Of a DNA stretch of 64,000 nucleotides, positions 44,479 through 63,999 are shown one piece after another. How positions within the stretch are numbered: the first letter of the stretch is position 1; each line of letters starts with the position of its first letter. The notes under the pieces were generated by a model. It worked only from the letters and a program-made list of their open reading frames with translations, searched no databases and was not told the DNA's origin. Source of the DNA: Candidatus Omnitrophota bacterium (GTDB taxonomy: Bacteria; Omnitrophota; Gorgyraeia; Zapsychrales; JANLHA01); NCBI GenBank assembly GCA_023247795.1, contig JAHFFT010000004.1, positions 9,739 to 73,738 on the forward strand, read 5' to 3'. A program made the position numbers and the translations under genes.

Positions 44479-45570
44479 TTAAGATGCTGTGACGAATGCT
44501 GCGATATCTCTGGCCGCATGCGGTTTAGCAAGAACAGCGATTTTTTCTTTAACGGCGGATAATTCGGATTGAGAGACCTGGTAGCGTCGCAGCACTTCTG
44601 CCATCTTATCTATCGGGACATCGCTCAGACCGACGCCATATTCTTTCAAAATTTGAACGTTGTGCTGTTCCTGGCCGGGAATGGCGCTAAAAAATATCAA
44701 GGGCAGTCCGCAGACCAGACCTTCGGAAATGGATAAACCACCCGGCTTGGTGATCATCGCGTCAGCGGCTTTCATCAGTTCGTCCATATTGTCGACCAAA
44801 CCCTGCACTTTGACAAGCTCTCTTTTCCAGCGGCCGAGCCGACGGTAAAGATTTTTGTTGTGTCCGCAGACCACGATGATCTGAAACCCGTCCAAGGCTT
44901 CAATCACCTCATCAATCGGGCCGATGCCGAAGGAACCCGTCGCTACCAGCACGGTAAAAACATCGGGCTGCAATCCCAGACGGCGGCGTAAGGCCGAAAC
45001 ATCGACCGATTCCGCGAAGCGATGGTCGGTCGGAATGCCGGTGACTTTGATCTGACCAGCCGCGACCCCCAGTAGCTGCAATTTTGTCTTTGTCCGGTCG
45101 CAAGCCACCGCGTAGAAATCGATCCCCTTTGACACCCAGATGCTGTGGACATCAAAATCGGTAATGACCGCTATGACTTGCGAATGGATTTTGTCGCTCC
45201 GTTTCAAATAAGAAGCCACTTCGTTGGGAAAAAAGTGGGCTGAATAAATTTGATCAAACTGCTCTTTGATCAAAAACTTGTGCAAACCAAAACCCATGAC
45301 GGAATTTTGCGTCCGTCGAAGGAACCTGACAACCGGCCCAAACCATTTTTGATCCAACAGTTCAAACACCACTTTCCAAATCCAAGGGAAATGAGAAATC
45401 ATCACCGTGTAGGAACCGCTGTAAAACGGTTTATACCCTTTGCAGGTATGGTCAAGCGCATCGACGATCCGGACATCATGGGACCCTTGTTTTTTGAGTT
45501 CGGCAAAAATGGCCTCAGCGGCTCGACGATGGCCGGCACCAGCGGTTGCGTGAATCACCAATATTTTCAT
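44479..45570 (-). CDS. MGDG-synthase-like / UgtP-type diacylglycerol glycosyltransferase (GT28).
   Basis: N-terminal MGDG_synth domain (…HATAGAGHRRAAEAI…) plus a C-terminal GT28_C domain. Confidence 0.75.
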   Translation of the reverse strand: MKILVIHATAGAGHRRAAEAIFAELKKQGSHDVRIVDALDHTCKGYKPFYSGSYTVMISHFPWIWKVVFELLDQKWFGPVVRFLRRTQNSVMGFGLHKFLIKEQFDQIYSAHFFPNEVASYLKRSDKIHSQVIAVITDFDVHSIWVSKGIDFYAVACDRTKTKLQLLGVAAGQIKVTGIPTDHRFAESVDVSALRRRLGLQPDVFTVLVATGSFGIGPIDEVIEALDGFQIIVVCGHNKNLYRRLGRWKRELVKVQGLVDNMDELMKAADAMITKPGGLSISEGLVCGLPLIFFSAIPGQEQHNVQILKEYGVGLSDVPIDKMAEVLRRYQVSQSELSAVKEKIAVLAKPHAARDIAAFVTAS

Positions 45571-46199
45571 TTTCGCTTCGCAAACTTTACGGGTTTTCTT
45601 GCGGTAAGAAGCGGACGGGACGTTTTTTTGCGAGGCGCCGGTTTACCGTTGCCATCGAGGATAACTTTGACGGCCTCCAAAAGGTCTTTGGTGATGGTGT
45701 CCGGATGGACTTTCCATTTTCGCATATACCGACGATCTTCGCGTCCAGAGAGAACAAAGATCGTCTTGCAACCGGCATTATGTCCGGCAAGGATGTCGGT
45801 CTCGGTATCACCGACAAAATAAGTTTTTCCAGCCGACCGTAAATTTTTATTCATCGACCGCAGGGCCTCACGAATAAAACCAATGCCTGGCTTACGGTAA
45901 TCGCAGTGTTGTCCGCCGCGGGCAATGGCATAATAAACCCGGTCGATCTTGCCGCCGGCCCTCTCCACTTCACGGAACATCTTGATCGTAATCTGGCTGA
46001 GTTTGTTCTGGCTGTAAACACCCTTCTCGATGCCAGCCTGATTGGAAATCACGACGATCTTGTAACCAGCCTGGGTCAAACGCTGGATGGCCTCGAGCGA
46101 GCCAGGGATGAAATGAAAATCCTTAGCACGGGTAACGTAATTGCCGTTTCCCGGGAATTTATTGATGACACCATCGCGATCTAGGAAGACTAATTTCAT
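45567..46199 (-). CDS. gmhB: HAD-IIIA phosphatase (D,D-heptose-1,7-bisphosphate phosphatase GmhB-like) with a basic C-terminal tail.
   Basis: The MKLVFLDRDGVIN motif and …GDTETD…. Confidence 0.75.
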   Translation of the reverse strand: MKLVFLDRDGVINKFPGNGNYVTRAKDFHFIPGSLEAIQRLTQAGYKIVVISNQAGIEKGVYSQNKLSQITIKMFREVERAGGKIDRVYYAIARGGQHCDYRKPGIGFIREALRSMNKNLRSAGKTYFVGDTETDILAGHNAGCKTIFVLSGREDRRYMRKWKVHPDTITKDLLEAVKVILDGNGKPAPRKKTSRPLLTARKPVKFAKRK

Positions 46200-46333
46200 T
46201 GCCTTTCTCTAAAATCAAACGCTGTCAAGCTTTTTTTATGGACGTGGGGTCAGCGAGGAATTGCGCTCAAACCCGTATAAGTATAATTGAAAAACAATGG
46301 CGGGATCAATGGAAATAGGAAGTTTTTTCAAAT

Positions 46334-46366
46334 CTGGGGGACAGCCCCTGAAGGGGCCGTTCCCAG
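46334..46366. repeat. REP-like hairpin CTGGGGGACAGCCCCT-GA-AGGGGCCGTTCCCAG.
   Basis: Imperfect member of the GGGGAC-N-GTCCCC family; intergenic. Confidence 0.5.
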
Positions 46367-46383
46367 TCTTTCGATCTTACTTT

Positions 46384-47487
46384 TTACACCAACTCGGCCA
46401 GCGTTTGACAAACATAATCCACTTGTTCCTGGCTCATGTGCGGGAACATCGGCAATGATAAAACCTCTTCACAAAGCTGTTCGGCAAACGGCAAATCGCC
46501 TTTTTTGTATCCAGCGTCGATGTAAGCCTCTTGCAGATGCAGCGCGATTGGGTAATGGATGAGAACGTCGATCCCGCGCTTTTTCATTTCTTCCATGATC
46601 TTGTCGCGTTTCTTAAGCCGCACGGCAAAGGTCTGGAAGACATGGCTGCGATCAGATTTGATTTTCGGCAGGCCCACCTTACCTTGCAGTTTTCCTAATC
46701 CTTTGAAGTACCGCTCAGCGACTTTATTGCGTAGGCAGTTCCATTCATCCAGATATTTCAACTTCTCGGCGAGGACCACGGCTTGCACGGTATCCAAACG
46801 CGAATTATATCCCTTGATCGAATGTTCATACCGGTTCTTCCGGCCATAATCGCGCAGCATGGTCACTTTTTCAAAAATCTTCTGATCATTGGTCACGACC
46901 ATTCCCCCGTCGCCAAATCCGCCCAGGCTCTTCGTCGGATAAAAACTAAAGCAACCGACCTGCCCCAACGACCCGGCCTTTTTCCCTTGATACGTGGCCC
47001 CATGCGCCTGACAGGCATCTTCGATGACCGCAATGTTTCGTTTCGCGGCCAGCGCGTTGATTTCCTTCATATTCGCGGCTTGACCATAAATATGGACGGG
47101 GATGATCGCTTTCGTCTTACTGGTAATGGCTTTCTTTACACCGTCAGGATCCAGATTATACGTTTCCGGTTCACTGTCCACAAACACCGGCTTAGCTCCG
47201 GTATAAGAAACACAAAGCGCTGTGGCGATGAACGTAAACGTCGGCAAAATCACTTCGTCGCCGGGCTTGATGTCTAAAGCCGACACCGCCAGATATAGCG
47301 CGTCAGTTCCGGAGTTAACGCCCACTCCATGCTTACAACCGCAATAGCGGGCAAAATCCTTTTCAAAATCCTGGGCCTCTTCTCCAAGAATAAAATTGCC
47401 CTTTTCAAAAACGGCATTGAGACCTTTATGCATTTCGGTCTTGATGGTCTCGTATTGGGGACGAAAGTCAATGAACGGAACTTTCAT
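46384..47487 (-). CDS. DegT/DnrJ/EryC1/StrS-family PLP-dependent sugar aminotransferase.
   Basis: 367 aa with an AAT fold-I (…GVNSGTDALYLA…, …YPTKSLG… Lys region). Confidence 0.85.
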   Translation of the reverse strand: MKVPFIDFRPQYETIKTEMHKGLNAVFEKGNFILGEEAQDFEKDFARYCGCKHGVGVNSGTDALYLAVSALDIKPGDEVILPTFTFIATALCVSYTGAKPVFVDSEPETYNLDPDGVKKAITSKTKAIIPVHIYGQAANMKEINALAAKRNIAVIEDACQAHGATYQGKKAGSLGQVGCFSFYPTKSLGGFGDGGMVVTNDQKIFEKVTMLRDYGRKNRYEHSIKGYNSRLDTVQAVVLAEKLKYLDEWNCLRNKVAERYFKGLGKLQGKVGLPKIKSDRSHVFQTFAVRLKKRDKIMEEMKKRGIDVLIHYPIALHLQEAYIDAGYKKGDLPFAEQLCEEVLSLPMFPHMSQEQVDYVCQTLAELV

Positions 47488-47518
47488 GAAAAACCAACCT
47501 TTCTTTAATAGTTACATG

Positions 47519-47586
47519 TCTCCAGTCTCAAGTGACAAGTAACTTGTGACATGGAACTTAAGACTTGTCACTTGAAACTGGAGACT
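47519..47586. repeat. Inverted repeat with 21-bp arms (CTCCAGTCTCAAGTGACAAGT / ACTTGTCACTTGAAACTGGAG, one mismatch) containing three ACTTGT(C/G)AC-type half-sites.
   Basis: It spans the GT9 stop codon and the GT9-to-aminotransferase intergenic spacer. Confidence 0.55.
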
Positions 47587-48646
47587 GCAATATTTGCTCC
47601 ACTTTTTCCAAAACATCTTTCACTTCGATGTTCTTTAAACAACTGATGTGATCACAGCTCGCCCGACGAAAATGACGGTAACACGGCCGGCAGGCAATAT
47701 TGCTGGTAACCACCGCGTGTCCTTCCGGCGGATACGGACCGTACACCTGCTCGGGAACGGGTCCGAAGATCGAAACGGTTTTGGTGCCGACAGCGGCCGC
47801 CATATGCAGCGGCCCGCCGTCATTGGTGATGACCAAATCACAGCGCTCTAAAATGGCCGCAGTCTGCAGCAAAGAATTTTCCGCGCAAACCGCGGCCGGC
47901 CGATGGGCCATTCTATCAGAAACCCCTTGCAGCAGTTTTTTTTCCTTCTCACTGCCCATCAAAAAAATCCGGGCATGGTATTTTTCAATCAATTGATCAA
48001 CGAGCTGAGAAAATTTCTCCGGTGCCCAGCGTTTATACAAAGCATCATGACCCCAACTCGCCCCGCCCGCCGGGAAAACAGCCATCGCCAGCTCCCCGCG
48101 CCCAACACCATGTTTGATCAAAAAACTTTCCGCCCAATCCTGGTCCTGTTTCGCCAAAGGCAATTTCATCTGCCTGGTTTGGATCGGAACGGCGAGTTCC
48201 CGCAAAAGATCAAGATAGCAATCGACGACGTGCTTTTTCTCGTAGCCAAAGAACGAAATTTTCTTTGTCAAAAAACGGCCGCGATTACGAAAATCAAATC
48301 CCACTCGCCGCGGGATGCCTGCCCCAAAAGACAAAAAACCCATAAAGCCATTGAGCGAAAGATCCATCACCAAATCGTAATGTTCCCTTTTGATGTCCTG
48401 AACCAAATTAAAAATCTTTTGCAAATACTGGAACTTTGATTTTTGTTGTATGGACTGCCATTCGTCGCGTTCATAAACATGAACCTTATGTAAAGATGGA
48501 TGTCGCTCGAGGAATTGGGCCGCGCGGCGATTCGCCAAATAACCGATTTGGATTTTTGGCGAATGCGCTTTCAAATTCTCAATCAACGGGGTCGTAAAGA
48601 GAACATCGCCGATACCATAAATATTGATGATAAGAACTTTTTCCAT
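47558..48646 (-). CDS. Glycosyltransferase family 9 (heptosyltransferase-like).
   Basis: N-terminal …INIYGIGDVLFTTPLI… and a C-terminal GT-B half, as in RfaC/RfaF. Confidence 0.8.
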   Translation of the reverse strand: MEKVLIINIYGIGDVLFTTPLIENLKAHSPKIQIGYLANRRAAQFLERHPSLHKVHVYERDEWQSIQQKSKFQYLQKIFNLVQDIKREHYDLVMDLSLNGFMGFLSFGAGIPRRVGFDFRNRGRFLTKKISFFGYEKKHVVDCYLDLLRELAVPIQTRQMKLPLAKQDQDWAESFLIKHGVGRGELAMAVFPAGGASWGHDALYKRWAPEKFSQLVDQLIEKYHARIFLMGSEKEKKLLQGVSDRMAHRPAAVCAENSLLQTAAILERCDLVITNDGGPLHMAAAVGTKTVSIFGPVPEQVYGPYPPEGHAVVTSNIACRPCYRHFRRASCDHISCLKNIEVKDVLEKVEQILQSPVSSDKS

Positions 48647-48656
48647 CCCAACCTTT

Positions 48657-49499
48657 TCATTGAACCGCTGTTTTACCGCGCTTAGAAGTTTTATAGCGAA
48701 CCCTTAACCACTTGAATGGATGATACCAAAATTTGCCATTGATCAGCCGCCAATCGGCCTGACTGAGCTCGTGCTGGGCAACGCGTTCTTCCATGACCTT
48801 GGGATGCGTTCCCAAATACGCCGGGAATCGATTGAGATCGCCGTAAGAATATTTTTCTATTCGCTCTTCCGAGCGGAGTGTGGCAAAACCGATATTTTCG
48901 GCATTGACCCGACGCTGCGTCATGATCTCTTCTGGATGCACCCAGCCGTAATGATACAAAAGACAACTCGTGGCCCGATGTCGCAACCGCTGTTGGTCTT
49001 TGCGTCGGAACCCCGCGGCGTCACCGCAAGACTCCACTTGCCCGCTATTTTTAACAATCCGTTCGCTCTTTTGAAACCATCCGTAATCGATCCGATAACG
49101 GTAATAACTTCCATAAAAATGCAGCCAACGCAGCCGTAAGGCATCCACTTGATCGTCGTGAAGATATTTGCGCATGCAGTTTAAAAGCGGCCGATGGTCT
49201 TTTTCGTGAATGACTTCATCCGACTGCAGATAAAACGCCCAATCGCCAGAGCATTCGGCCAAGGCCCGATTGGTTTCATCGGCCAAGACCGTTGCCCCAA
49301 AATTCATGTCCCAAACGGATTGGATGATCCGGATTTTGGGGTCACGCAAGGTCTTGAGCAATGCCATCGTCCCATCTTCTGAATCCCCGACGTTGATGAT
49401 GAATTCGTCACAGATCGGTAGAATCGACTGGATTGATTCTAAAATGGGGTAATTGTATTTGATCACATTGCGGGCAATGGTGAATCCGCTGATTTTCAT
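48657..49499 (-). CDS. Glycosyltransferase family 2-like protein.
   Basis: MKISGFTIARN… with DxD-type …VGDSEDGT…. The track start at 49538 is a TTG inside a palindrome; ATG at 49499 is preferred. Confidence 0.65.
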   Translation of the reverse strand: MKISGFTIARNVIKYNYPILESIQSILPICDEFIINVGDSEDGTMALLKTLRDPKIRIIQSVWDMNFGATVLADETNRALAECSGDWAFYLQSDEVIHEKDHRPLLNCMRKYLHDDQVDALRLRWLHFYGSYYRYRIDYGWFQKSERIVKNSGQVESCGDAAGFRRKDQQRLRHRATSCLLYHYGWVHPEEIMTQRRVNAENIGFATLRSEERIEKYSYGDLNRFPAYLGTHPKVMEERVAQHELSQADWRLINGKFWYHPFKWLRVRYKTSKRGKTAVQ

Positions 49500-49520
49500 A
49501 TCATGAAATGTGCTTTTCCA

Positions 49521-49567
49521 CGCACCCCCGGGGTTCAACTCCCGGGGTTAAACCCCGGGGGTGTGCG
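49521..49567. repeat. Triple copy of the CCCGGGG palindrome: CGCACCCCCGGGGTTCAACTCCCGGGGTTAAACCCCGGGGGTGTGCG.
   Basis: It overlaps the GT4 stop (encoding …TPGV*) and is the same motif family as 4914 and 41686. Confidence 0.7.
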
Positions 49568-50681
49568 TTGAGGATTTGAATAAATCTTGATAAACACCCA
49601 ACGTCTCTATCGCGGTCTTCGTGAACGAAAAATCCTGAGCGCGTTTGAGCGCTTTTTTCTGCAAGCCGACTTTCAGCTCCCTATTCTCGATAACATTCGT
49701 TATCGCCTGGGCGATTTTATCCGGATCATAAGGATCGACTGTTAAAGCCCCGTCGGCGGCGATTTCCGGACAGGAGGAAACATTCGATGTCACCACCGCG
49801 GCCCCGCAGCAAAACGCCTCAATGATTGGAAACCCAAATCCCTCATAAAACGACGGAAAAACAAAACACTCGGCCAAATTGTAACAGCGGCGCAAATCGT
49901 CGTCCGAGACGAACCCCGGAAAAATCACACTGTCCTGCAAATATAAATTTTTAACCGCCTCGTCCATCCCTTCCAACATCCAACCCTTCATGCCGGCCAC
50001 GACAAGCTTACCTTTGAATTTTCCATCTTCTTTCAAAATCGAAAAAGCCAACAAAAGATTTTTTAAGTTCTTGCGCGGTTCTATCGTCCCGACAAACAAA
50101 AGGAAAGGCGGTTCAATGCCTTTTTTCTTTAAGCTCGTCCTTCCCTTTTCAAGCGCTTCGCCCTCAAGAGGGAAAAAAGTGGTTTTATCAACCCCTTGGT
50201 ACACCATCTTGACCCGCTGTTGATCAACCGGAAAAAAATGGTTAAGGTCCTTCAACGTGCTTTGCGAACAGCAAATGATCTGATCGGCGCGCTCAACCAC
50301 CGCCTGCATCTGTTTTTCCGTCGTGTCAATGGTCTGCTGAGTGTGTCCCTGTGGATAGGTCCGATAAACCAAGTCGTGCACGGTAACAACAACCTTGGCC
50401 TTGTTGATATGGATCATGTCTGGTGATGGGGAATGGTAAATGTCAACCGTTTGCAACGTTTGGTCAATGCCTTGACCGAGCCAATCGATCTTCACCAAAA
50501 AATTTTTAGCGTCAAAATGCGGGACATGACGTTTGAAATCGAAATATTTCTTCTGAGCGTAAAGCCAATATTCATTTTGCTGATCCAATTCACTCAAAGA
50601 CTTGACCAAATTATACGCGTACCGGCCGATCCCGGCGTAATTCAACTTTAAAAATGAACGGCAATTGATCGCGATGCGCAT
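49548..50681 (-). CDS. Glycosyltransferase family 4 (GT-B, Glycos_transf_1).
   Basis: …FVGTIEPRKN… and …FPSFYEGFGFPIIEA… (EX7E motif). Confidence 0.85.
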   Translation of the reverse strand: MRIAINCRSFLKLNYAGIGRYAYNLVKSLSELDQQNEYWLYAQKKYFDFKRHVPHFDAKNFLVKIDWLGQGIDQTLQTVDIYHSPSPDMIHINKAKVVVTVHDLVYRTYPQGHTQQTIDTTEKQMQAVVERADQIICCSQSTLKDLNHFFPVDQQRVKMVYQGVDKTTFFPLEGEALEKGRTSLKKKGIEPPFLLFVGTIEPRKNLKNLLLAFSILKEDGKFKGKLVVAGMKGWMLEGMDEAVKNLYLQDSVIFPGFVSDDDLRRCYNLAECFVFPSFYEGFGFPIIEAFCCGAAVVTSNVSSCPEIAADGALTVDPYDPDKIAQAITNVIENRELKVGLQKKALKRAQDFSFTKTAIETLGVYQDLFKSSTHTPGV

Positions 50682-50688
50682 GAACCGG

Positions 50689-51852
50689 CTATTTCCGTTT
50701 CTTTAAAAAATTCCGCACGGTTTCGACGACGTAATCCATTTGGTCCAATTCGAGGTCCTGATGGATGCCGATATGAAAACCATGATCGCCGCAATATTCC
50801 GCCTCGGGGAAATCACCGATTTTATGTCCTAAAAATCGATAACCGGGACACTGGGTCGGCATGGAATAAAAAAGATTGCGCGAGTCAATCCCCGCGCCGT
50901 CAAGATCGGCAACCAGATCGTCTTTCGTAAATGGTTGGCCTTCCCTCAAAATGATCGAAAACGCGTGCGGCCCGATCTTTTCCCCTTTCTCTTCTTTAAT
51001 GAAAATGAACTGCTCTTCAAACCGCGCAAACTTTTCAATCAGATAGAGCAGGTTCCGACGACGTTTCTTTAAGGTCTCCTGAAAAATTCTGATGTTCCCA
51101 ATGCCGACCGCGGCCTCAAGTTCATTCATCTTTGCTGAAAAACCAATCCGCTGAAAATCAAATTTACCAACGATGCCATGATTGCGAAGTGAGCGCAGGA
51201 TTCCGGCCATCTTCTCATCATTGGTGATCACAATACCGCCTTCGATCGTGGTAACGATATGCGCCGCGTACAAACTGAAGGCCGCCATCTGCCCAAAGGT
51301 CCCCAACAACTGACCGTTAAGTTCGGCACCATGGGCCTCGGCCGTATCTTCAATCACAAACAACTTATGCCTTTTCGCGATGGCCATGATTTCTTTCATC
51401 GCTGCCGGCTTGCCCATCAAATGCACCGGCATGATGGCCTTGGTTTTCTTGGTGATCACTGCCTCGATTTTATTGACGTCGATATTAAGGGTCTCTCTTT
51501 TGACGTCCACAAAGACCGGCTGGAACCCAGCTTGAAAAACCGCGTTGCCAGTCGCGACAAACGATAACGCCGGGACAATCACCTCATCTTCGCGCTTCGC
51601 GCCATAATCATACAAAACCGCCAGACTCAACGCGTCCGCGTCGGTGCCGCTGCTGACCGCGACCGCGTCCTTCACCCCAAACAACTGAGCAAAACGCTCT
51701 TCAAATTCCCGCACGTATTTCCCGCGTGTCACCATTTTTATGTCAAGGGCTTCATCGATCAATCGACGGGACTCATCGGTGATCGAAACGGTGCCGAAAG
51801 GATTTTTATACTTCACTTTTTTTTCCAAATTCTCGTGGGGCTGCGGCTTCAA
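50689..51852 (-). CDS. Second DegT/DnrJ/EryC1/StrS-family sugar aminotransferase.
   Basis: 387 aa with fold-I PLP motifs (…AVSSGTDADALSLA…). Confidence 0.85.
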   Translation of the reverse strand: MKPQPHENLEKKVKYKNPFGTVSITDESRRLIDEALDIKMVTRGKYVREFEERFAQLFGVKDAVAVSSGTDADALSLAVLYDYGAKREDEVIVPALSFVATGNAVFQAGFQPVFVDVKRETLNIDVNKIEAVITKKTKAIMPVHLMGKPAAMKEIMAIAKRHKLFVIEDTAEAHGAELNGQLLGTFGQMAAFSLYAAHIVTTIEGGIVITNDEKMAGILRSLRNHGIVGKFDFQRIGFSAKMNELEAAVGIGNIRIFQETLKKRRRNLLYLIEKFARFEEQFIFIKEEKGEKIGPHAFSIILREGQPFTKDDLVADLDGAGIDSRNLFYSMPTQCPGYRFLGHKIGDFPEAEYCGDHGFHIGIHQDLELDQMDYVVETVRNFLKKRK

Positions 51853-52574
51853 AGCAGATGTCCTTTTCCTAAAATTTTTTGGGCTTGTTCGTATCGTTCC
51901 GGGGTCCCGATATCTAGAAGTCTTTCTTTGATCACATGGCCGTACAATCGCTGTCCGATCAATTTTGAAAACACGTCATATTCAAGCGAACAGGGTTTCT
52001 TGTCAGGAAAATGAGAAAAAATTTTTCTTTGGAAGCAATAAATCCCGGCGTTCATCAGCCGGCAATTTTTTTTCTGACTGGCCGCTTCTTTTTCGAGAAA
52101 GGAGCAGATTTGCCCATCTGGTTTCAACTCAATTTTTCCGACGTCCTGGCGCTCATCTTCCATCACAACCAGAGTTGCCAAAGCCCGCTTGGCTTGGTGA
52201 AACGCGAATAAGTCCTGATAAGCGAGATCACAAAAAGAATCCCCATTGAGGGCAAAAAAAGTATCGCTTTTGATCAATCTTTGAGCATTTTTAAGCGCCC
52301 CGCCGGTTCCTAACGGCTCGGTCTCTCTCGAAAACGCGATTTCTAGCCCTAAATTGTTTTTGCTATAATAGTCCTCAACTTGACTGGCCTCAAATCCGGT
52401 ACACAAAATGAACCGGCTAAAACCCTGCCCCTGTAAATATCGCAAGAGCAGGTTCAAAAAAGGCTCCGATTTGATCTGCGCCATGGTCTTTTGTTGGTTG
52501 CCGATCCGCTCACGCAGACGTTTACCCAAACCACCGCAGAGGATCAACATATCGTGGGATTTGAGATTTGACAT
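51849..52574 (-). CDS. hddC: Sugar-1-phosphate nucleotidyltransferase (HddC-like D,D-heptose-1-P guanylyltransferase candidate).
   Basis: The LILCGGLGKRL nucleotide-binding loop, and it neighbours the HddA-like kinase and GmhB-like phosphatase. Confidence 0.7.
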   Translation of the reverse strand: MSNLKSHDMLILCGGLGKRLRERIGNQQKTMAQIKSEPFLNLLLRYLQGQGFSRFILCTGFEASQVEDYYSKNNLGLEIAFSRETEPLGTGGALKNAQRLIKSDTFFALNGDSFCDLAYQDLFAFHQAKRALATLVVMEDERQDVGKIELKPDGQICSFLEKEAASQKKNCRLMNAGIYCFQRKIFSHFPDKKPCSLEYDVFSKLIGQRLYGHVIKERLLDIGTPERYEQAQKILGKGHLL

Positions 52575-52665
52575 GGTATTTCTCAAAAATGGCCTGGAAC
52601 GGCTTTACACCTATGCTATGATACCAACAAAGATTTAATAAGCAACCAAATTATTCTCGAGCATT

Positions 52666-54378
52666 ATGACCAATCGACTCGCTTCCTTTTCCCAAAAGAT
52701 GGTTCCTTTCTTTTCACAAGTTCCTTGTTTTGGGGATGTTACATTCCTGTCCTTATTGACAATCCTGCTGGTCTTCCAACCCCACTATCTTCATGGAGAG
52801 CTGGACATTTTTGAATGGGGGATTTATCTTCCCGGGATCCAGGCACTTTTAGACGGCCAAGTGCCTTATCGCGACTTTTTTCTCCTACGCGGGCCGCTTG
52901 AACTTTATATCCCTACCAGCTTGATGACCATTTTCGGAAAAAATTTCAGCATTTTATCCACCTATTTTTACGTTGGCACAGTCATCACCCTCATCATCTG
53001 CATTCTTCTCGCTAAGGAAATCTTCCGCACCCGATTTCTTTTATACCTCTTTGTTCCCATCTTAGTCACAAAAACTTTTCCAAGGGTAGTTTTTCATATT
53101 TGGGGCGGGATGCGTTATGGATGGGGATTGCTGGCCATTCTCTTTTTTCTTTACTTCCTAAAAAAACGGCGTCCACTTTGGATGATCTTAGCCGGTGGCA
53201 GCGCGGCACTGGCGGCGTTGACTAGCATTGAAATCGGATTCTGCGCGGCCATGGGTATCGTTTGCTGTCCCATCTTCTTCTTTCTTCTAAAAAAACAAAC
53301 GTTCGCGGAAAGCTTGACCGCCATTCAATCCTTCGCGATCGGATTTTGTATTCCCGTGTTGCCATGGATTTTTTACGCTTTCACCCATCACGGCCTGCTT
53401 CCTTATATTGAAACGACGCTGACCGTGGTCACGCAAATGCCCCAGGTCTTTCCGGATTATCTGCTCGACAACCATCCGCAAGGTTGGCGACAATGGTTAT
53501 CTTCGCTCATCCCGGCCGCTGCGGATTTCAAATATTTTTCTCCGGCCTGGGCCTATATTTTTACATTTTTCTATCTGGCGCTGCGTTATAAAAAAAATAG
53601 ATTAACTGACAACCAGCTCCTCGTCTTTCCCCTTTGGTTTTATGGATTGGCCCTATTCCTTTCTTCTTTACGTAAAATTGGGGCGGCCCAATTTGAGATG
53701 TCTTTGCAACCGGAAAAACTCCTGCTCTTCTTTTTGCTAGAAGAAATTTACCTTCGCCTGAACAAAAGTGCGAACTTCCCCCGAACCTTCAAAACCTATG
53801 GCGTTCTCATCTTTACTCTTACCTTGATCATAACAACGCTGTCGACGGCGGTCCTCAAACTCACCAAACGCTCTTACCCGTTTCGCTGCCTCAGCCACTG
53901 GCTCAACAATAAAAATTCCGATGATGCCATTCCCTTCCCATTCTACGTACCGCGGGACCAGGCCCAAACCCTGGGACTTCCTCGGGTTTACGGACGTATC
54001 GTCCCCGACTGGCAGGCCAAAGAATTGAATGAATTGAATGCGTTCCTTCAAAAACATACCAAAGACAAGGAAGCTGTTTTTATGTTTCCAGAACTGGGGA
54101 CCTACAGCTTTATCTTCAACCGGCCTCAGGTGGGAAGGTTCGGCAATGCCTCTTTTTCCTGGTTGAGTGAAAAATGGTTTCAAGAGCTCATGCAAGACTT
54201 AAAGACGCGAAGCCCTCGCTACGCGATTCTTGCCAAAAAACCTGCCCCGACGCTAAATGCCTACCTGAAATTAGAACGGAATCAAAAAAAATTTGGTGAG
54301 ATGAAAGGCTACATTCTCAAAAACTATCATTCCATCTTATCAACTCAAAACTGTGACGTTTTTGAAAAAAATGGGTGA
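52666..54378 (+). CDS. Large polytopic membrane protein (570 aa) with a C-terminal soluble domain. It resembles a GT39/GT83 (ArnT/PMT-like) glycosyltransferase or a glycan polymerase.
   Basis: About 12 predicted TM helices and then roughly 180 aa of soluble C-terminus. It is the only plus-strand gene and is convergent with the hddA-like gene (6-nt gap). Confidence 0.55.
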   Translation: MTNRLASFSQKMVPFFSQVPCFGDVTFLSLLTILLVFQPHYLHGELDIFEWGIYLPGIQALLDGQVPYRDFFLLRGPLELYIPTSLMTIFGKNFSILSTYFYVGTVITLIICILLAKEIFRTRFLLYLFVPILVTKTFPRVVFHIWGGMRYGWGLLAILFFLYFLKKRRPLWMILAGGSAALAALTSIEIGFCAAMGIVCCPIFFFLLKKQTFAESLTAIQSFAIGFCIPVLPWIFYAFTHHGLLPYIETTLTVVTQMPQVFPDYLLDNHPQGWRQWLSSLIPAAADFKYFSPAWAYIFTFFYLALRYKKNRLTDNQLLVFPLWFYGLALFLSSLRKIGAAQFEMSLQPEKLLLFFLLEEIYLRLNKSANFPRTFKTYGVLIFTLTLIITTLSTAVLKLTKRSYPFRCLSHWLNNKNSDDAIPFPFYVPRDQAQTLGLPRVYGRIVPDWQAKELNELNAFLQKHTKDKEAVFMFPELGTYSFIFNRPQVGRFGNASFSWLSEKWFQELMQDLKTRSPRYAILAKKPAPTLNAYLKLERNQKKFGEMKGYILKNYHSILSTQNCDVFEKNG

Positions 54379-54384
54379 GAGGTT

Positions 54385-55383: not shown

Positions 55384-56894
55384 CGTAGGATTTCCTTTTC
55401 TTCCAAAAGTTTACGTCTCAATTTGATTTTAGTGGATTTACCTGTTTCATCAACCGCAATCTGTCCGAATTTTTTCTTTAACAAATTAAGGAAAGCGGGA
55501 TTGGTATGATATTTTAACCAAGCCTCATCGCGAAAACGCAAGACTTCCGCGGCCGTGAGGTATTTGGTCGGCAAGGGCTGCGTCTCATAAGAATGCTGAG
55601 AATATCCCGCGTAGGTTTCCGGAAGTTTCCATCCTTGCTGTCTGGCAATGCCATACAGGGGACTTCCCGGATACGCCATCGCGCTATAAAAATTGGCCAT
55701 CTCGGTGTTCATCTCCATGGCCAGGTCGAGCGTCATTTGCATGCTGTCCCTATCGTCCTCGGGCAATCCGAAAATATAATTGGCCGCGACATTGATACCG
55801 GCATCGCGGATTTTCTTGACGACCGCGCGGATGTCCACATCGTCAAAGCGGCCCTTGGTGACATCTTTGCGGACTTTGGTATTGCCGCTCTCGATCCCTA
55901 AGGCCAGATAATTGACCCCAGCTTTTTTCAGGATCGCTAAATAATTTTCTTTGACGGTATCGACGCGGGAATAACACCAGATGTTAAAATCAAACCCGCG
56001 TTCAATGATCAACTCACATAATTTCATGAAATGATTGGGGTTCAAAACAAACAGCTCGTCGGCGATCTTGATATTTTTAATCCCCAGTTTCGCGAATATC
56101 TCAAAATCGCGAATGATGAATTCCGGTTCCCAGTAACGAAAGACCGCGCTGCCGTCGGCATATTCATTTTCCTGACGGTTGATGATGTTGATCATGCAAA
56201 AGGAACATTTCATCGGGCAGCCGAGGCTCGTATAAAGTGCGGCAAAGGGCGCTCGCTCACAACCATTGGGCATGGCGTGCCAAAGCGCGGTGCGGTAATT
56301 TTTCATCGGCAACTTATCCCAGATGACACCGGAAAGTTCGGAAGACAAATCCTGCTTGGCAACAATCAGCGAAGGAGGATTGAGAATGATCTGACCGTTG
56401 TCTCGATGACCCAAACCCGGCACCTGATCAAGTTTATCATTCAGGTTGGTCAGTAAAAGAAAAGAAATGGTATAAACCCCTTCATTCTGGCAGACCAGGT
56501 CGATAAAGGGATGATTCTCCATCACCTCGCGAGGGAGCGCCGCCACATGTCCACCGACAAAAAGAATTTTTATTCCCGGAGATCCTTGTTTGACCTTTTC
56601 AGCAAGGTTCACCGCGCCCGCCATGTTTTGCGAACTGGCCGACGGCTGCTGGCCGTAGACGACGAAACAAGCCACCCGCGGATTTGCTTCCTTGACTTTC
56701 TGGGCGGCGGCAACATCGTCCAGATGCAAGGCTTCACAATCCAAGATGTCCGCGCCAAATCCCCGCTTCAAACAATGGGCGGTCAGCATCCCAGCCCAAA
56801 TCGGCGGCTCAACCGCGGAAAAATCTTCGCTCAAATCCTGATAAATTTTTTTTGCGGCATTGGGATGGATGAAGAGGATATCACATTTTTTCAT
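55380..56894 (-). CDS. Cobalamin-binding (class B) radical SAM enzyme.
   Basis: N-terminal B12-binding Rossmann domain plus the CPMKCSFC motif (Cx3Cx2C) and a TIM-barrel core. Confidence 0.85.
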   Translation of the reverse strand: MKKCDILFIHPNAAKKIYQDLSEDFSAVEPPIWAGMLTAHCLKRGFGADILDCEALHLDDVAAAQKVKEANPRVACFVVYGQQPSASSQNMAGAVNLAEKVKQGSPGIKILFVGGHVAALPREVMENHPFIDLVCQNEGVYTISFLLLTNLNDKLDQVPGLGHRDNGQIILNPPSLIVAKQDLSSELSGVIWDKLPMKNYRTALWHAMPNGCERAPFAALYTSLGCPMKCSFCMINIINRQENEYADGSAVFRYWEPEFIIRDFEIFAKLGIKNIKIADELFVLNPNHFMKLCELIIERGFDFNIWCYSRVDTVKENYLAILKKAGVNYLALGIESGNTKVRKDVTKGRFDDVDIRAVVKKIRDAGINVAANYIFGLPEDDRDSMQMTLDLAMEMNTEMANFYSAMAYPGSPLYGIARQQGWKLPETYAGYSQHSYETQPLPTKYLTAAEVLRFRDEAWLKYHTNPAFLNLLKKKFGQIAVDETGKSTKIKLRRKLLEEKEILR

Positions 56895-56966
56895 TGGCGA
56901 TGGTGGGCATCAATCTTTCCGCAAGGATTATAGATGATGATCTCTGCCTACGGCAATCTTAATATC

Positions 56967-59900
56967 TTAAAAATTCAATTGGGCCCTCAAGGACACATCG
57001 AGCGAACGCTCGTCATGCCCATTTCCAAGCAAGGTATCAATAGCTAAAAGCTTATCCGCCTGTCCGCCGATCTGAAACTGACAACTGTTTTTAAAATAAG
57101 TGCTTTGGGTGATATCATTCAAAAAAATAGCGCTGGTCAAACGGACTTTCTTGTTCAAGTTAGCTCCAACTGAGACATATTTCTCAACGGTCTCTCGGAT
57201 GCCAGCATTGTCCCAGCTAGACAATCCGGTAGAAATATCGAATCGATGTGCCCCAACCTGGCGCTCAATGCTTGTTCCGATGATATCGGTCAAGTTGTCT
57301 AAATTCTGCTCCCAGAAAAATCGTGATTGAAAACCCAAAAATTTGCTTTCTGAAAAATATTTTAAAAATTGAAAATCCCCGAACTCTTTTCCTTCCATCT
57401 CAAGACCCAATTTGAAATTTTTCAATAGCGTGACGCTAGGGCGCAAGGCGATAAGTTCATTGATGTCCTTGCCTATCTCGAGCTGGACATCCTGACCGAA
57501 AGGATCGAGATGAATGCCAGAACGGACATCGGTCGCGTAATTTATGGGCTTATAAAAATCCAATGGGCCCTTCAGCCCATCAATCCCTTGGAATTCAACT
57601 TCAAATTCATGATTCACCAACCCTAAGGGGACATAGGGCATCAAATCCACGTCGGTATACCAAAATTCGCCCGGAGATTTGACCGATCCCCCAAGAATGA
57701 TCCCGGGGATCACAACGCTATTATCCTCCTCTTTAAAACTGCCTTCATAACCAATTTCCGTTTTCCGAAAGGGAACAAAATCCTTTTCCGCGGCCGTTAG
57801 GTTAAGGTCTTGCCCCAATGTGTTTTTTTTACGAACATCGTAACTCAAAAGCGATGGATTGAATTGATTGACAGAAAAAGGGGACTGATAACCGTCCCGC
57901 ACGCTCAATAACATGTCGTCATAAAATCGGTAGGCGTAGGCCAATCCTTTGATTTGCACATCAAAACTGCTGGAATCAAAAAGACGGTCTTTGAAATACG
58001 CGTAATACCGATCCGCGGGCGATGTCATATTGAGCGCGGTACGGGAATATTTATCCAAGACCGGGACATTGACGTCAATGATTCCGCTGTCATAACCCAA
58101 AAAGAGATTTTCCGCCCCCAAAATTCGCCGGGAAGAAGATTCATTAAACTGGACCTGAGATGGGGCCCATAAATGATCAACGCCTGAGAAGCTGTTCGAG
58201 GCTGTACTAGGTTCAAGGATGGACATCCCCATATCGTACAACAGCACCCGTTCTTTCTGCTGCAACGCGTCTTCTAAGTTCCGATCCAACATCCCCTCAA
58301 GAAACAGATAAAGCTGCTGCGAATCATCGGCGTTGATGATACGAATAAGGTCTTCATCGGTCAGACTGAATTCACCAACATCCCAAGCCAATGACAATAG
58401 AAGATTGTTCCATTTGGGATCGCTGAATTTGAGTCGTCCTTTGGCCAGTTCGCGAGGATTAAAATCAATCTCTTCCAAAACAGAACGGATCGCGTCGTCC
58501 CGCGCGGCGATCGTAAAATCAAATTCGCCATTCTTGATCTGATCAACATCTTCTTGAACAATCTGCTTGATATCGTCGAGCGGGGCCGTATGGACCTTCA
58601 TGATATAGCTCTGATCGGTGTTCAAGCTCAAGACATTCGCGAGTTGATCAAAACGCAGATTCGTATGATCGAGATTCAACGCAAAGAAATCGTTCTTATA
58701 ATTCGCGATGTTAATGGGCATCGTGTTATTTCGGGGAGCGTCCATCTGCAAATGCAGCCGGTTGTCATTGGAATCAAATTTGACATATCCATCGCGGGAG
58801 ATATCAAGCACCAGACGATAACCATTCATCTCAGCATGAAAAGCCCGCTCTTGGCTGTCGAATGCCAGGTGATTCTCATCCGCCGTGCCCCAATGAAAAT
58901 CAAAATCCAAATCAGCGCCAAACTCTCTTTCGAGAACATCAAGGGCCCCGTTCAGATCCCCGTGGATGAAATCATTGATTTCAGAATTATCCAATAAAAT
59001 CTTTTCTCCATCGGATTTGGTCAACAACAATTCTCTTTGCGTTTCTCCATTGACCGACTGCTCATGATAAGAAAACTCTTTTTCGTTCATCTTGCCATAG
59101 ACCTTAAACAACCCTTTACCTTTCTCAAAGAAGAGCGATCCGTTCAATTCCTCGCCGAACAAGGTCAGATATCCCTGCAGCATTTCTTTATCGTGTTGGA
59201 TCTTTTCAAATTGGAATTGCTGATTATCCCATATAGTCCCGGCTCCTTTAAGAACGTCACCGTATTTTTCCAAAGAAAATTGCGCGATGTCCTTATCCAG
59301 CAAACTCGTCTGCAATACAAAACTTTTTTTGTTGGCAATAGGATCAAAATCCTTCTTTAAAGTAAGAAGTCCTTTGCCCAAATCTAATAAATGTCCTGAG
59401 TCAATGCCTGAAGATAAAGCTTCCCCTTGGCTGGGCAGCGCGGGATGCCCCTCGCTGTCTGACGTCCACGGCTCATCGATCTTCAGCATTCCTTTGGATG
59501 GAATAATTCCAGCCGAAACTTCTTCCATCCCCGTTCGAAAAAAGGAGGCGTCGAGATATTGGGACAAACTTTGAAGATGGTCTGCCCAGCCTCCTATCCC
59601 TTGATCCATCATTGTGTCGAAAGACTCTTTGATTGAAGTTTGATCCGGCAAGACAATGGATAGGTTCACCGACGGCCGAGCGTCATCAATCATCGACAGG
59701 AACTGCTGGCTCTCGAAACCTTTGAATAAACTTTTGGGATTGAAAGAAATGGCGTCGAGCTTTCGAGTTGCCTTATTGTAACGATAGGCCAATACCTGAT
59801 CATTCTGATAACGCCCATAATAAATCTTGTCGTCGCTAAAAATATTGATCTGCCTTTGCTCACGCCCGCGGCTGTAAATCCCTGTCAAGAACGGAGCGTC

Positions 59901-61595
59901 CTCGCGAGTCAAAAACAACGCGGATAGACCGCTGCGCAGAGAAATGGCATCGAGCTTGCCATGCGGGGTTGCTAAAGCAATGCTGCGGCCATTGTCATTC
60001 TTAATAAAATTGATAAAATCCTTCCTCCCGGTTTCTCTATTGGCATAGCTTGCCCCGTACCGACTGGATTGAGCAAATGCTGAAATGCCTTCCGACGAAG
60101 AATTGATGGAAACGGTCCCCTCGTGGTCTTTATATGCGAGGTTTAGATTTTTATAAGCTTGCTCGCCGCGGTCATACTGGCTCAAATAAAAATGATTTTC
60201 ATCCAAACTCGCGTATAGATATTTAGCATAAGTCCCCAAGCTCAAATGGCTTTGCCCGCCGGAATTCCCGCCGGTCAGGTATTGATATTGTCCACTCTTC
60301 CGGTCGTGATGTGCCAGATACACGTTCCCCTTCTGATAGGCTCCATAGAGTGTGTCCTTCAAGAATGAAGAACTGGCGGTCATCCGACCCTGGTTCTGAT
60401 AAAAATTGAAAAATTTAAAACTTTTATAATCTTTGTCCGTCACATAACCCAATAAAGAATTTTGATCCTGCCGCAAATAAAATCGCTCGTTCTCCCCGTC
60501 AGCACTGATCTGTGTCCGCGCACCATCATGACGAACGTCGACATCCATAAACACATCATTGATTTTCTGAAGACCCGCATCAACTTTTAACAAAGGATTT
60601 TGCAAGGCCCCTTCGGCTAACGTTGGTATCTCAATCGTTTGCTCCCATTGTTTGTTGTCATAATAATATTTTGGCAACTCTTCGATTTTGTCCGTTATCT
60701 TGTCCCTGTAAAATTCGAGCGACCCCAAATCTTCATAGAGAATTGATTTTGGCAAAAGGGACGTATGAGATCCAACACTCCAATGATCCAATATATCTCG
60801 CGCTTTGTGCCCATCGTCAAAAACATTTTTTTTATAGTGGTTTAAAATATCCTCCTTTTCTCCAATATCAACATCCCCGAGATATGATCTGATTTTCTTT
60901 TCCTGCGAGGTCACAGTCTCTGACAAAAGACCCAATTCTTCTACATCATATTTCCGTAAAAGAGCTCGACGGAAGCCGGGTCGTGAAATATGACCGAACT
61001 TCCTATCGAGTATTGAAAAGCGCGATTTCGCCGAAGAGACCAGAGATTTTACGTCCAGCGGAGTTTCAACGAGGTCCTTCTTACCAGTGACTTGACTGAG
61101 GAAGCGCGGGGTTTTTTGGTAAAAACGAGTGAGATCGATCTTGCCAAGAATAGTATTTTCATCTGTCGACATGGAAAAAAAATCTTTCCCTTGCTCTACC
61201 ATATGCTTAACATTTACGGATGGATCTTTCTGTTCAGCCTGAACGCTTTCCTGATCTTCGGAAGTTTCCACTCTAGCTTTTTCATGAAGCACGGTCTGCA
61301 GGATCCAATAATCGGTCTTTTCCAAAATAAAATCAACCTTAGGTTGGTTCTTTTTCGATGTGGCCTGACCAGAAATCTCCCCATTCGATGTGGTGGCCTG
61401 CCAATATAAATCCCGATCCTGAGACCAAACATTGAGATCGTAATGATGGCCGGCAGAGGCTGGTAAACCGTGAACGGTGATGGAGAGATTGTCAGTGTTG
61501 CCAGAGGCATACGCCGAATGGGCTTGCGGCGCGCATAATAGCAAACCGAAAATATACCAGAAAAAAAAATTTCGTAAAAAAAGCATCCCATTCAT
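56967..61595 (-). CDS. Giant secreted protein (1542 aa) of unknown function with an OMP-like C-terminus.
   Basis: Signal peptide MNGMLFLRNFFFWYIFGLLLCAPQAHSAYA. Aromatic-rich beta-type composition throughout. The C-terminus is …SLDVSLRAQLNF (terminal Phe, alternating hydrophobic residues). There are no recognisable enzymatic motifs. Confidence 0.6.
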   Translation of the reverse strand: MNGMLFLRNFFFWYIFGLLLCAPQAHSAYASGNTDNLSITVHGLPASAGHHYDLNVWSQDRDLYWQATTSNGEISGQATSKKNQPKVDFILEKTDYWILQTVLHEKARVETSEDQESVQAEQKDPSVNVKHMVEQGKDFFSMSTDENTILGKIDLTRFYQKTPRFLSQVTGKKDLVETPLDVKSLVSSAKSRFSILDRKFGHISRPGFRRALLRKYDVEELGLLSETVTSQEKKIRSYLGDVDIGEKEDILNHYKKNVFDDGHKARDILDHWSVGSHTSLLPKSILYEDLGSLEFYRDKITDKIEELPKYYYDNKQWEQTIEIPTLAEGALQNPLLKVDAGLQKINDVFMDVDVRHDGARTQISADGENERFYLRQDQNSLLGYVTDKDYKSFKFFNFYQNQGRMTASSSFLKDTLYGAYQKGNVYLAHHDRKSGQYQYLTGGNSGGQSHLSLGTYAKYLYASLDENHFYLSQYDRGEQAYKNLNLAYKDHEGTVSINSSSEGISAFAQSSRYGASYANRETGRKDFINFIKNDNGRSIALATPHGKLDAISLRSGLSALFLTREDAPFLTGIYSRGREQRQINIFSDDKIYYGRYQNDQVLAYRYNKATRKLDAISFNPKSLFKGFESQQFLSMIDDARPSVNLSIVLPDQTSIKESFDTMMDQGIGGWADHLQSLSQYLDASFFRTGMEEVSAGIIPSKGMLKIDEPWTSDSEGHPALPSQGEALSSGIDSGHLLDLGKGLLTLKKDFDPIANKKSFVLQTSLLDKDIAQFSLEKYGDVLKGAGTIWDNQQFQFEKIQHDKEMLQGYLTLFGEELNGSLFFEKGKGLFKVYGKMNEKEFSYHEQSVNGETQRELLLTKSDGEKILLDNSEINDFIHGDLNGALDVLEREFGADLDFDFHWGTADENHLAFDSQERAFHAEMNGYRLVLDISRDGYVKFDSNDNRLHLQMDAPRNNTMPINIANYKNDFFALNLDHTNLRFDQLANVLSLNTDQSYIMKVHTAPLDDIKQIVQEDVDQIKNGEFDFTIAARDDAIRSVLEEIDFNPRELAKGRLKFSDPKWNNLLLSLAWDVGEFSLTDEDLIRIINADDSQQLYLFLEGMLDRNLEDALQQKERVLLYDMGMSILEPSTASNSFSGVDHLWAPSQVQFNESSSRRILGAENLFLGYDSGIIDVNVPVLDKYSRTALNMTSPADRYYAYFKDRLFDSSSFDVQIKGLAYAYRFYDDMLLSVRDGYQSPFSVNQFNPSLLSYDVRKKNTLGQDLNLTAAEKDFVPFRKTEIGYEGSFKEEDNSVVIPGIILGGSVKSPGEFWYTDVDLMPYVPLGLVNHEFEVEFQGIDGLKGPLDFYKPINYATDVRSGIHLDPFGQDVQLEIGKDINELIALRPSVTLLKNFKLGLEMEGKEFGDFQFLKYFSESKFLGFQSRFFWEQNLDNLTDIIGTSIERQVGAHRFDISTGLSSWDNAGIRETVEKYVSVGANLNKKVRLTSAIFLNDITQSTYFKNSCQFQIGGQADKLLAIDTLLGNGHDERSLDVSLRAQLNF

Positions 61596-61800
61596 TGGTC
61601 ATTTTCCCAATTCTTGGACAAGTGATTAGGATTACCCCTTTTGATAAAAACGATGAAAATTGATGAGAGAAAAAGGAGGAATCAAATTAGAAACATGAAG
61701 TAAGTATATAGTGCTGAGGAGGGAATTGCAAGAAAATTACATTACGAACATAACTATTTATAAATAAATAACTTACAAGCTTTTAAACATGTTATCAACA

Positions 61801-61812
61801 GGGGACTGTCCC
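61801..61812. repeat. REP-like palindrome GGGGACTGTCCC abutting the epimerase stop codon.
   Basis: GGGAC-T-GTCCC is a perfect dyad; the stop TAG (61812-14) shares its last nucleotide. Confidence 0.5.
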
Positions 61813-62762
61813 TAAATATTTGTCAATGCCGTGTGCAAGGAGCGCTCTCGACCAAGGACGGTAAAGGCCTTGATCAATTCCTCAATTCCTGCGGCTAAGG
61901 AAACTCGCGGTTTGAAACCGGCCTTTTCAATCTTTGCGTTGCTGACAATGTAATCGCGTTGGTCCGGGTCTTTGCCGGTCTTGGACTCACGGATCTCTAA
62001 ATCAGGGACAAATTTTTTGATCTGCTGACATAACTCAAGCTTGCTTAAGTTGGCGTCGCTCAACCCCACATTGTAAGCCTGATCTTTCATCTTTTTAAAA
62101 TTCTTCAACCCCAAAAGGAAGGCAGCGGAAATGTCCCGCACATGGATGTAATTGCGCATGAAATGCGCCTCAAACAATTCAATTCGTTTTTCAAACAGCG
62201 CCCGATAGGTAAAATCATTGACCAACAAATCCAAACGCATGCGCGGACTGACACCAAAGACCGTTGCCAATCTTAAGGTGATGCTCCCGCCCGCCTGCAA
62301 AAGCAACTCTTCCGCCTGCACCTTAAGCCGGCCGTAAAGTGAGACCGGTCGTAAGGGGGTGTCCTCAGTACAAAATTTCCCCTTTTCTCCGACTCCATAA
62401 CCACTGTTGGTCGTCGGATAAATGATGATTTGCTGCTTTGATCGTAGCTTGAGGATCAATTGCACAGCATCAATAATAACGCTTTTAGCTTTTTGGGGGT
62501 CTTTATCGCACAATGGGGCCCCGGTCAGACAGGCCAGAGGAAAAATAGCGTCGACATTTCTAAGCAAAGGGGCTAAAACTTTTGCATCACCAGCATCACC
62601 GCGAATGATGCGTAGACGCTGATCATGACAGCAATCCAAAAGCGAATTTTGCTGATACATGAAATTATCAAGCACCGTGACCTCATGCCCCGCTTGCAAT
62701 AACGTTGGTGTTAGGACCGCACCTATGTATCCAGCCCCACCGGTGATTAAGATTTTCATCAT
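61812..62762 (-). CDS. NAD-dependent epimerase/dehydratase (extended SDR).
   Basis: ILITGGAGYIG Rossmann motif and the YxxxK catalytic dyad. Confidence 0.8.
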   Translation of the reverse strand: MMKILITGGAGYIGAVLTPTLLQAGHEVTVLDNFMYQQNSLLDCCHDQRLRIIRGDAGDAKVLAPLLRNVDAIFPLACLTGAPLCDKDPQKAKSVIIDAVQLILKLRSKQQIIIYPTTNSGYGVGEKGKFCTEDTPLRPVSLYGRLKVQAEELLLQAGGSITLRLATVFGVSPRMRLDLLVNDFTYRALFEKRIELFEAHFMRNYIHVRDISAAFLLGLKNFKKMKDQAYNVGLSDANLSKLELCQQIKKFVPDLEIRESKTGKDPDQRDYIVSNAKIEKAGFKPRVSLAAGIEELIKAFTVLGRERSLHTALTNI

Positions 62763-62879
62763 TGAACTCACAGTCAGAATTATTACCAGGGCCCCAGAAA
62801 CCCTGCGACCCAGAAACTCATGATAACTCTCCTAAAACTGGGACTCTGGGCAACTGGCGCGCTGGGGAACTTTCCCTGT

Positions 62880-63800
62880 TCACTTTTTTAACCATTCATA
62901 TGTTCTTTCAATGCCCTCGGGCAAAGACACCTTTGACCGCCAACCCAAGCCATGAATCTTACGGCTATCCAATAATTTTTGATAAACTCCATCCGATTTG
63001 GTCGGATCAAATTCCAGGTGTCCACGAAAACCGGTAACCCGCGCAATGGTTTGCGCCAATTCCAGAATAGAGACATCAGCCCCGTATCCTACGTTCATGA
63101 TATCCTGCCCGTCATACCGCTCCATTAAAAATAAGCACGCCTCCACAAAATCCTCGCTGAACAGGAATTCTCGTCGTGGACGGCCGCTGCCCCAGACCGT
63201 TACCGCATCCTTATCTCCTTTAACCGCCTCTGAAAACTTCTGCAACAAAGCACCCAAGACATGCGCCTTTTGCGGATCCGTGTCACTACCTGGCCCATAA
63301 ACCGTGGCGGGAATCATCACGATCGCGTTAAAACCATACTGCTGACGATACGCCTGACACTGTTTGATGCCAGCCAATTTTGCCAAAGCATACGGCTCGC
63401 TAGTCTCTTCCAAGGGACCTGTCAGCAAAGATTCTTCCTTGATGGGTTGAGCAGCGTCCTTTGGATAAACACAGGAACTCCCTATGTACAAAAGCTTCTT
63501 GGTTCCATGCCGACGTGCGGCCTCCATGACATTCGCCTGGCTCATCACATTGCAATAGAAAAATTCTCCCGCGTGCTCTTGATTAGCTTGGATGCCTCCC
63601 GAACGGACCGAACCTAAAAATACATACTCCGGCTTTTCTCTTTGAAAAAAATGATCGACCTGTTGTTGGTTCAAGACATCGAGTGGTCTTTCTGAGGAGG
63701 AAAATACTTTTGTGAAACCCCTGCTGCGCAACCCTTCCACCAAAGACCGTTCAAGAACATCTCCATGACCGACAACTAAAATCTTTGATGAATGCTCCAT
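62880..63800 (-). CDS. fcl: GDP-L-fucose synthase (GDP-4-keto-6-deoxymannose 3,5-epimerase/4-reductase).
   Basis: KILVVGHGDV (degenerate GxxGxxG Rossmann, as in Fcl), …SSCVYP…, YALAK. ATG at 63800 is preferred. Confidence 0.8.
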   Translation of the reverse strand: MEHSSKILVVGHGDVLERSLVEGLRSRGFTKVFSSSERPLDVLNQQQVDHFFQREKPEYVFLGSVRSGGIQANQEHAGEFFYCNVMSQANVMEAARRHGTKKLLYIGSSCVYPKDAAQPIKEESLLTGPLEETSEPYALAKLAGIKQCQAYRQQYGFNAIVMIPATVYGPGSDTDPQKAHVLGALLQKFSEAVKGDKDAVTVWGSGRPRREFLFSEDFVEACLFLMERYDGQDIMNVGYGADVSILELAQTIARVTGFRGHLEFDPTKSDGVYQKLLDSRKIHGLGWRSKVSLPEGIERTYEWLKK

Positions 63801-63816
63801 CGATGCCGTGCCCATT

Positions 63817-63999
63817 TCATTTTTCGTTATAAAAATTCCCATGCTCAATCAGCAAGGTTGATTTGCTGTCCTCACGCTCGATGGCATGTTGATAAGCGGG
63901 AAAAATGGCCTCCGGCTCTTCCAATTCAATGACCTCGATCCAGGAAAACATCTTACGAAACCCCTCGGCGTAATTGCCAACGTGCTGATGACCAGGATG
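63817..63999 (-). CDS. 3' end (last 60 codons) of an unidentified upstream gene in the same operon.
   Basis: The minus-strand frame reads …HPGHQHVGNYAEGFRKMFSWIEVIELEEPEAIFPAYQHAIEREDSKSTLLIEHGNFYNEK* and is open to the window edge. It is not recognisably Gmd. Confidence 0.4.
   Translation of the reverse strand, partial: HPGHQHVGNYAEGFRKMFSWIEVIELEEPEAIFPAYQHAIEREDSKSTLLIEHGNFYNEK

Follow-up and report, generated by a model that had tools for sequence, protein, structure and literature searches.

Which sugar does a block of glycan genes in an Omnitrophota genome build, and does the giant protein encoded inside it take part? The original prediction for positions 44479–63999 of this 64,000-nucleotide stretch of DNA (the window) was an S-layer or capsule cluster based on a GDP-D,D-heptose pathway. 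Our preferred reading, to which we give a probability of about 60%, is that the region is an Omnitrophota-wide envelope-glycan cluster making GDP-3-deoxy-heptose, and that the giant gene is an independent insertion. The likeliest product of the cluster is a modified sugar of seven carbons destined for the cell envelope.

Gene content and conservation of the cluster

All 14 open reading frames predicted between 44479 and 63848 were present, and their domain assignments were upheld by Pfam and NCBIfam. NCBIfam scores for the window proteins were all under the curated equivalog cut-offs, as expected of a deep-branching phylum. The features are:

44479..45570, minus strand: GT28/MGDG-synthase-like glycosyltransferase, diglucosyl-diacylglycerol-synthase-like (PF06925 E 6e-21; NF010135 194 bits, cut-off 500)
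45567..46199, minus strand: GmhB-like HAD-IIIA phosphatase, candidate heptose 1,7-bisphosphate 7-phosphatase (top family NF006506, 150 bits, cut-off 178)
46384..47487, minus strand: DegT-family sugar aminotransferase (DegT1), catalytic Lys present (PF01041 E 1e-125)
47558..48646, minus strand: RfaF-like GT9 glycosyltransferase, heptosyltransferase family (PF01075 E 4e-30)
48657..49538, minus strand: divergent GT2-family glycosyltransferase (PF00535 E 6e-6)
49548..50681, minus strand: GT4 glycosyltransferase (PF00534 E 2e-37; PF13439)
50689..51852, minus strand: ColD/RfbH-like PMP-dependent NDP-4-keto-sugar 3-dehydratase (DegT2; top NCBIfam RfbH, 253 bits)
51849..52586, minus strand: HddC-like sugar-1-phosphate (heptose-1-P) guanylyltransferase, NTP_transferase (top family NF049965 HddC, 145 bits, cut-off 300)
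52666..54378, plus strand: polytopic membrane protein of 570 aa, divergent GT-C, PMT_2/ArnT-like (homologue matches to PF13231)
54385..55383, minus strand: HddA-like GHMP kinase, candidate D-glycero-D-manno-heptose 7-phosphate kinase (top family NF049969 HddA, 151 bits, cut-off 600)
55380..56894, minus strand: B12-binding-domain radical SAM (rSAM) enzyme (PF02310 and PF04055)
56902..61809, no strand: 4.9-kb strain-specific insertion (comparison with L005)
56967..61595, minus strand: 1542-aa secreted protein with outer-membrane beta-barrel (no family match; barrel model)
61812..62771, minus strand: Cj1427-type C4-dehydrogenase orthologue, SDR (379.6 bits to PDB 6vo6/6vo8)
62880..63848, minus strand: Fcl/ColC-like NDP-4-keto-sugar epimerase/4-reductase (NF047922 358 bits, cut-off 500)

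The gene order Fcl, SDR, rSAM, GHMP, NTP, DegT2, GTs, DegT1, HAD, GT28, priA was found in 57–67 loci from different Omnitrophota genomes, often flanked by lptD and priA (lptD upstream in 28 loci). Median identities of the rSAM enzyme, the kinase, DegT2 and the SDR were 75, 72, 69 and 67%, respectively, compared with 42% for PriA-N; the rSAM enzyme ranged over 69–80% in 67 loci. GmhB-like orthologues had a median of 59% and GT2 orthologues of 58% (29 loci); GT28, the final gene of the conserved block, adjoins priA and has same-position orthologues 47–54% identical in related loci. This sugar-building cluster is common to nearly all sampled members of an uncultured phylum; it is no capsule or S-layer locus that varies from strain to strain. 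The predicted S-layer or capsule glycan also lacks support in view of the lptD and priA flanks and of a GT9 that comes near the threshold for heptosyltransferase II (TIGR02195, 127.5 bits, cut-off 134.6).

A gene pair for E1alpha/E1beta-like subunits, which are short in Omnitrophota (~203 and ~178 aa), adjoins Fcl in 42–46 loci and in this organism's ENA contig, just past the window end. One deltaproteobacterial locus and one labelled 'Elusimicrobia' retain the association of SDR, rSAM, kinase, E1alpha/beta and DegT. On the plus strand the cluster has a single gene, the 570-aa ORF. The window protein had no significant Pfam match, and 3 of 12 full-length homologues (32–37% identical) matched PF13231 (PMT_2, a GT-C family; best E 3e-8), bearing out its description as GT-C-like. 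GT-C homologues lie within the cluster in 12 loci, making this protein an accessory member.

The B12-radical SAM enzyme

The rSAM enzyme carries the cluster motif GCPMKCSFC and shares with HpnJ, BchE and AprD4 a domain order of B12-binding-like Rossmann domain followed by radical SAM core. The same enzymes head its sequence matches: its best NCBIfam families were HpnJ (151 bits), BchE (109), ApyD (103) and AprD4 (94), and its top PDB match was AprD4 (6fd2, 69 bits). It differs from HpnJ and AprD4 in scoring far under their cut-offs (151 versus 578 and 94 versus 500). The substrates of HpnJ and AprD4 are sugars or aminoglycosides.

A simple sugar C-methyltransferase resembling GenK or Fom3, the role first proposed, would fit the B12-binding domain, the CxxxCxxC motif and the weaker methylase-family matches (PhpK 82 bits, QCMT 37, TokK 36), and most characterised B12-rSAM enzymes are methylases (PMC12931638). 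We nevertheless consider this role rather unlikely, as the nearest relatives (HpnJ, BchE and AprD4) either are not methylases or have no assigned reaction, and AprD4 does not bind cobalamin (PMC12931638). Judged from similarity, the order of matches does not favour C-methylation. The enzyme forms a family of its own, closely tied to the HddA-like kinase: a 4-nt overlap joins the two genes in the window (55380..56894 and 54385..55383), and 45 of 57 loci show the same overlap.

Proposed activation and tailoring of a heptose

The closest structure to the GHMP kinase was the WcbL/HddA-type kinase WcbL (4usm, 138 bits), followed by 3k85 and 4n3o; mevalonate kinase and galactokinase scored 70 and 39 bits. 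The nucleotidyltransferase was closest to 6jq8/5xhw, a Yersinia 6-deoxy-D-mannoheptose pathway protein (HddC), and the GmhB-like phosphatase has the motif DRDGVIN. The predicted 'epimerase' has been replaced by an orthologue of the C4-dehydrogenase Cj1427, as the SDR matches PDB 6vo6/6vo8 over residues 5–308 (E 1e-112, ~60% identity). That 6vo6 is Cj1427 was confirmed by translating the reverse complement of primer Cj1427cF918, which gives RAFKMMKV, the sequence of 6vo6 residues 299–306. The function of Cj1427 has been described (PMC10680097). With these matches the predicted GDP-D,D-heptose route holds and is now stronger.

Counting against it are the sub-cut-off NCBIfam scores and the usual preference of GT9 enzymes for ADP-heptose rather than GDP-heptose. 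As had been noted for the window, GmhA was not found; a tblastn search of the 64-kb window and the Omnitrophota loci ±10 kb with an approximate E. coli query reached no better than E 0.3, which weakens the case for a supply of heptose 7-phosphate. GmhA is often encoded away from such clusters, for LPS core.

The missing GmhA and the sub-cut-off scores would also suit a different substrate, with the kinase, phosphatase and nucleotidyltransferase activating mannose instead, or an octose or other aldose phosphate formed with the help of the thiamine enzyme, and the Cj1427-like enzyme oxidising that GDP-sugar. A deltaproteobacterial relative (L073) couples a SIS isomerase with a transaldolase, a pairing that recalls the lincosamide GDP-octose route (LmbR/N/P/K/O), and 13 loci also encode a ManC-like mannose-1-P guanylyltransferase, so GDP-mannose could be the substrate. 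We think another sugar improbable: a change of substrate sits poorly with 60% identity to Cj1427, HddA, HddC and GmhB were each the top-scoring family and structure, and the common placement of GmhA elsewhere would account for its absence.

Of the two predicted DegT aminotransferases, one assignment stands. DegT1 retains its catalytic Lys (FSFYPTK motif kept in 27 of 28 orthologues), supporting at least one amino sugar as predicted. DegT2 was rejected as an aminotransferase: its best PDB matches are perosamine synthetase and ColD, whose substrates are GDP-4-keto sugars, and the His of its FSLYAAH motif, retained in 47 of 50 orthologues, replaces the catalytic Lys, aligning with K186 of PerA, the residue changed in the K186A mutant (3dr4), and with a His of the 3-dehydratase ColD.

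The Fcl homologue has the catalytic Cys and His (SSC...AHV). Its score was 261 bits against true GDP-fucose synthases, compared with 218–255 bits against 7m13, 7anh and 7anc, chains deposited as GDP-L-fucose synthase which we take to be C. jejuni heptose C4-reductases. By these scores it appears slightly closer to genuine fucose synthases than to the putative heptose reductases, which counts against the heptose reading. Neither the window nor any of 60+ related loci yielded a Gmd, and the gene next to the Fcl homologue is that of the heptose C4-dehydrogenase. The Fcl homologue most likely completes a colitose-like 3-deoxy-heptose, and the predicted fucose is not supported.

The synteny, the gene identities, the His/Lys signatures, the insertion and the barrel model are direct results; for the GDP-3-deoxy-heptose reading, we infer the substrates, step order, product and acceptor as follows. 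The HddA-like kinase would add a phosphate at C1 to heptose 7-phosphate from a GmhA encoded elsewhere, and the GmhB-like phosphatase would take off the one at C7. The Cj1427 orthologue would then oxidise C4, the ColD-like PMP enzyme would remove the 3-OH, and the Fcl/ColC-like enzyme would epimerise and reduce the product to GDP-3-deoxy-heptose, a seven-carbon analogue of colitose. Extra tailoring may be expected from the rSAM enzyme, the true aminotransferase and the minimal E1alpha/E1beta-like thiamine enzyme, and GT4, GT2, GT9, GT28 and GT-C would assemble the sugar or sugars into a conserved structure, either a glycolipid or one resembling an LPS core.

A close comparison is the C. jejuni capsular GDP-heptose modification pathway (Cj1423 HddC, Cj1425 HddA, Cj1427 C4-dehydrogenase, Cj1428 C4-reductase and the HS:5 PLP C3-dehydratase), which shares HddA-, HddC- and GmhB-type activation, the Cj1427 orthologue, an Fcl-family reductase and a ColD-type dehydratase. 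Whereas that combination was mixed in vitro from different serotypes, in Omnitrophota it is a natural phylum-wide operon, a conserved core rather than a serotype-variable capsule. The Omnitrophota cluster lacks the cupin C3/C5 epimerase and GmhA, and adds the rSAM enzyme, the mini E1alpha/beta thiamine enzyme and the GT9, GT28 and GT-C transferases. As in the GDP-colitose pathway (Gmd, ColD, ColC; E. coli O55/Yersinia), a ColD-like 3-dehydratase with His for Lys is followed by an Fcl-like epimerase/reductase on a GDP-4-keto sugar, but the 4-keto group would come from a Cj1427-type dehydrogenase acting on heptose, keeping the 6-OH, rather than from a 4,6-dehydratase acting on mannose. E1alpha/E1beta-like thiamine enzymes (YerE in yersiniose; AviB1/AviB2-type pairs) attach two-carbon branches to NDP-keto-sugars. 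The Omnitrophota pair resembles these in joining a PP-domain and a Pyr-domain protein beside 4-keto-forming and 3-deoxygenating enzymes; it differs in its truncated subunits, and is a putative enzyme.

The inserted giant gene

A relative 92–95% identical in nucleotide sequence on both flanks (L005, nzgw298) passes from position 1835 (window 61810) to 1842 (window 56901), placing the insertion in the interval from the stop codon of the dehydrogenase gene to the start codon of the rSAM gene. The SDR–rSAM gap is 4917 nt here against a median of 18 nt in 57 loci; a search for terminal repeats at the insertion found none. Neither this 95%-identical relative nor any of the ~65 other clusters has the giant gene, which is not an old cluster member but a recent insertion in one strain.

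The 1542-aa ORF had no family match in Pfam or NCBIfam. Its N-terminal ~770 aa are orphan sequence, and its C-terminal ~770 aa form a conserved module modelled with a terminal outer-membrane beta-barrel of ~20–22 strands, in agreement with the suggested outer-membrane location. The proposed role as pathway substrate or exporter is not supported, given the gene's absence elsewhere and the surroundings of its homologues, which have biotin genes, AhpC or DeoC as neighbours and in 3 of 4 cases show no link to glycans; generic porins and TonB-dependent receptors also outscore exporters for the barrel. Together with the lack of Gmd for fucose and with an order and sequence conserved across the phylum, unlike O-antigen or capsule loci, these results make a strain-variable S-layer or capsule cluster (heptose, fucose, amino sugars) with a dedicated exporter or glycosylation substrate very unlikely.

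In our preferred reading, the strain separately gained the 4.9-kb insertion with a stand-alone giant barrel gene whose product has a variable N-terminal half. This large outer-membrane protein, probably a pore, represents a family not described before; it probably evolves fast, acts at the surface or in the manner of a porin, and lies outside the pathway. Large outer-membrane beta-barrels for comparison are the 18-strand OprD/Occ porins, the 22-strand TonB-dependent receptors, LptD and AlgE.

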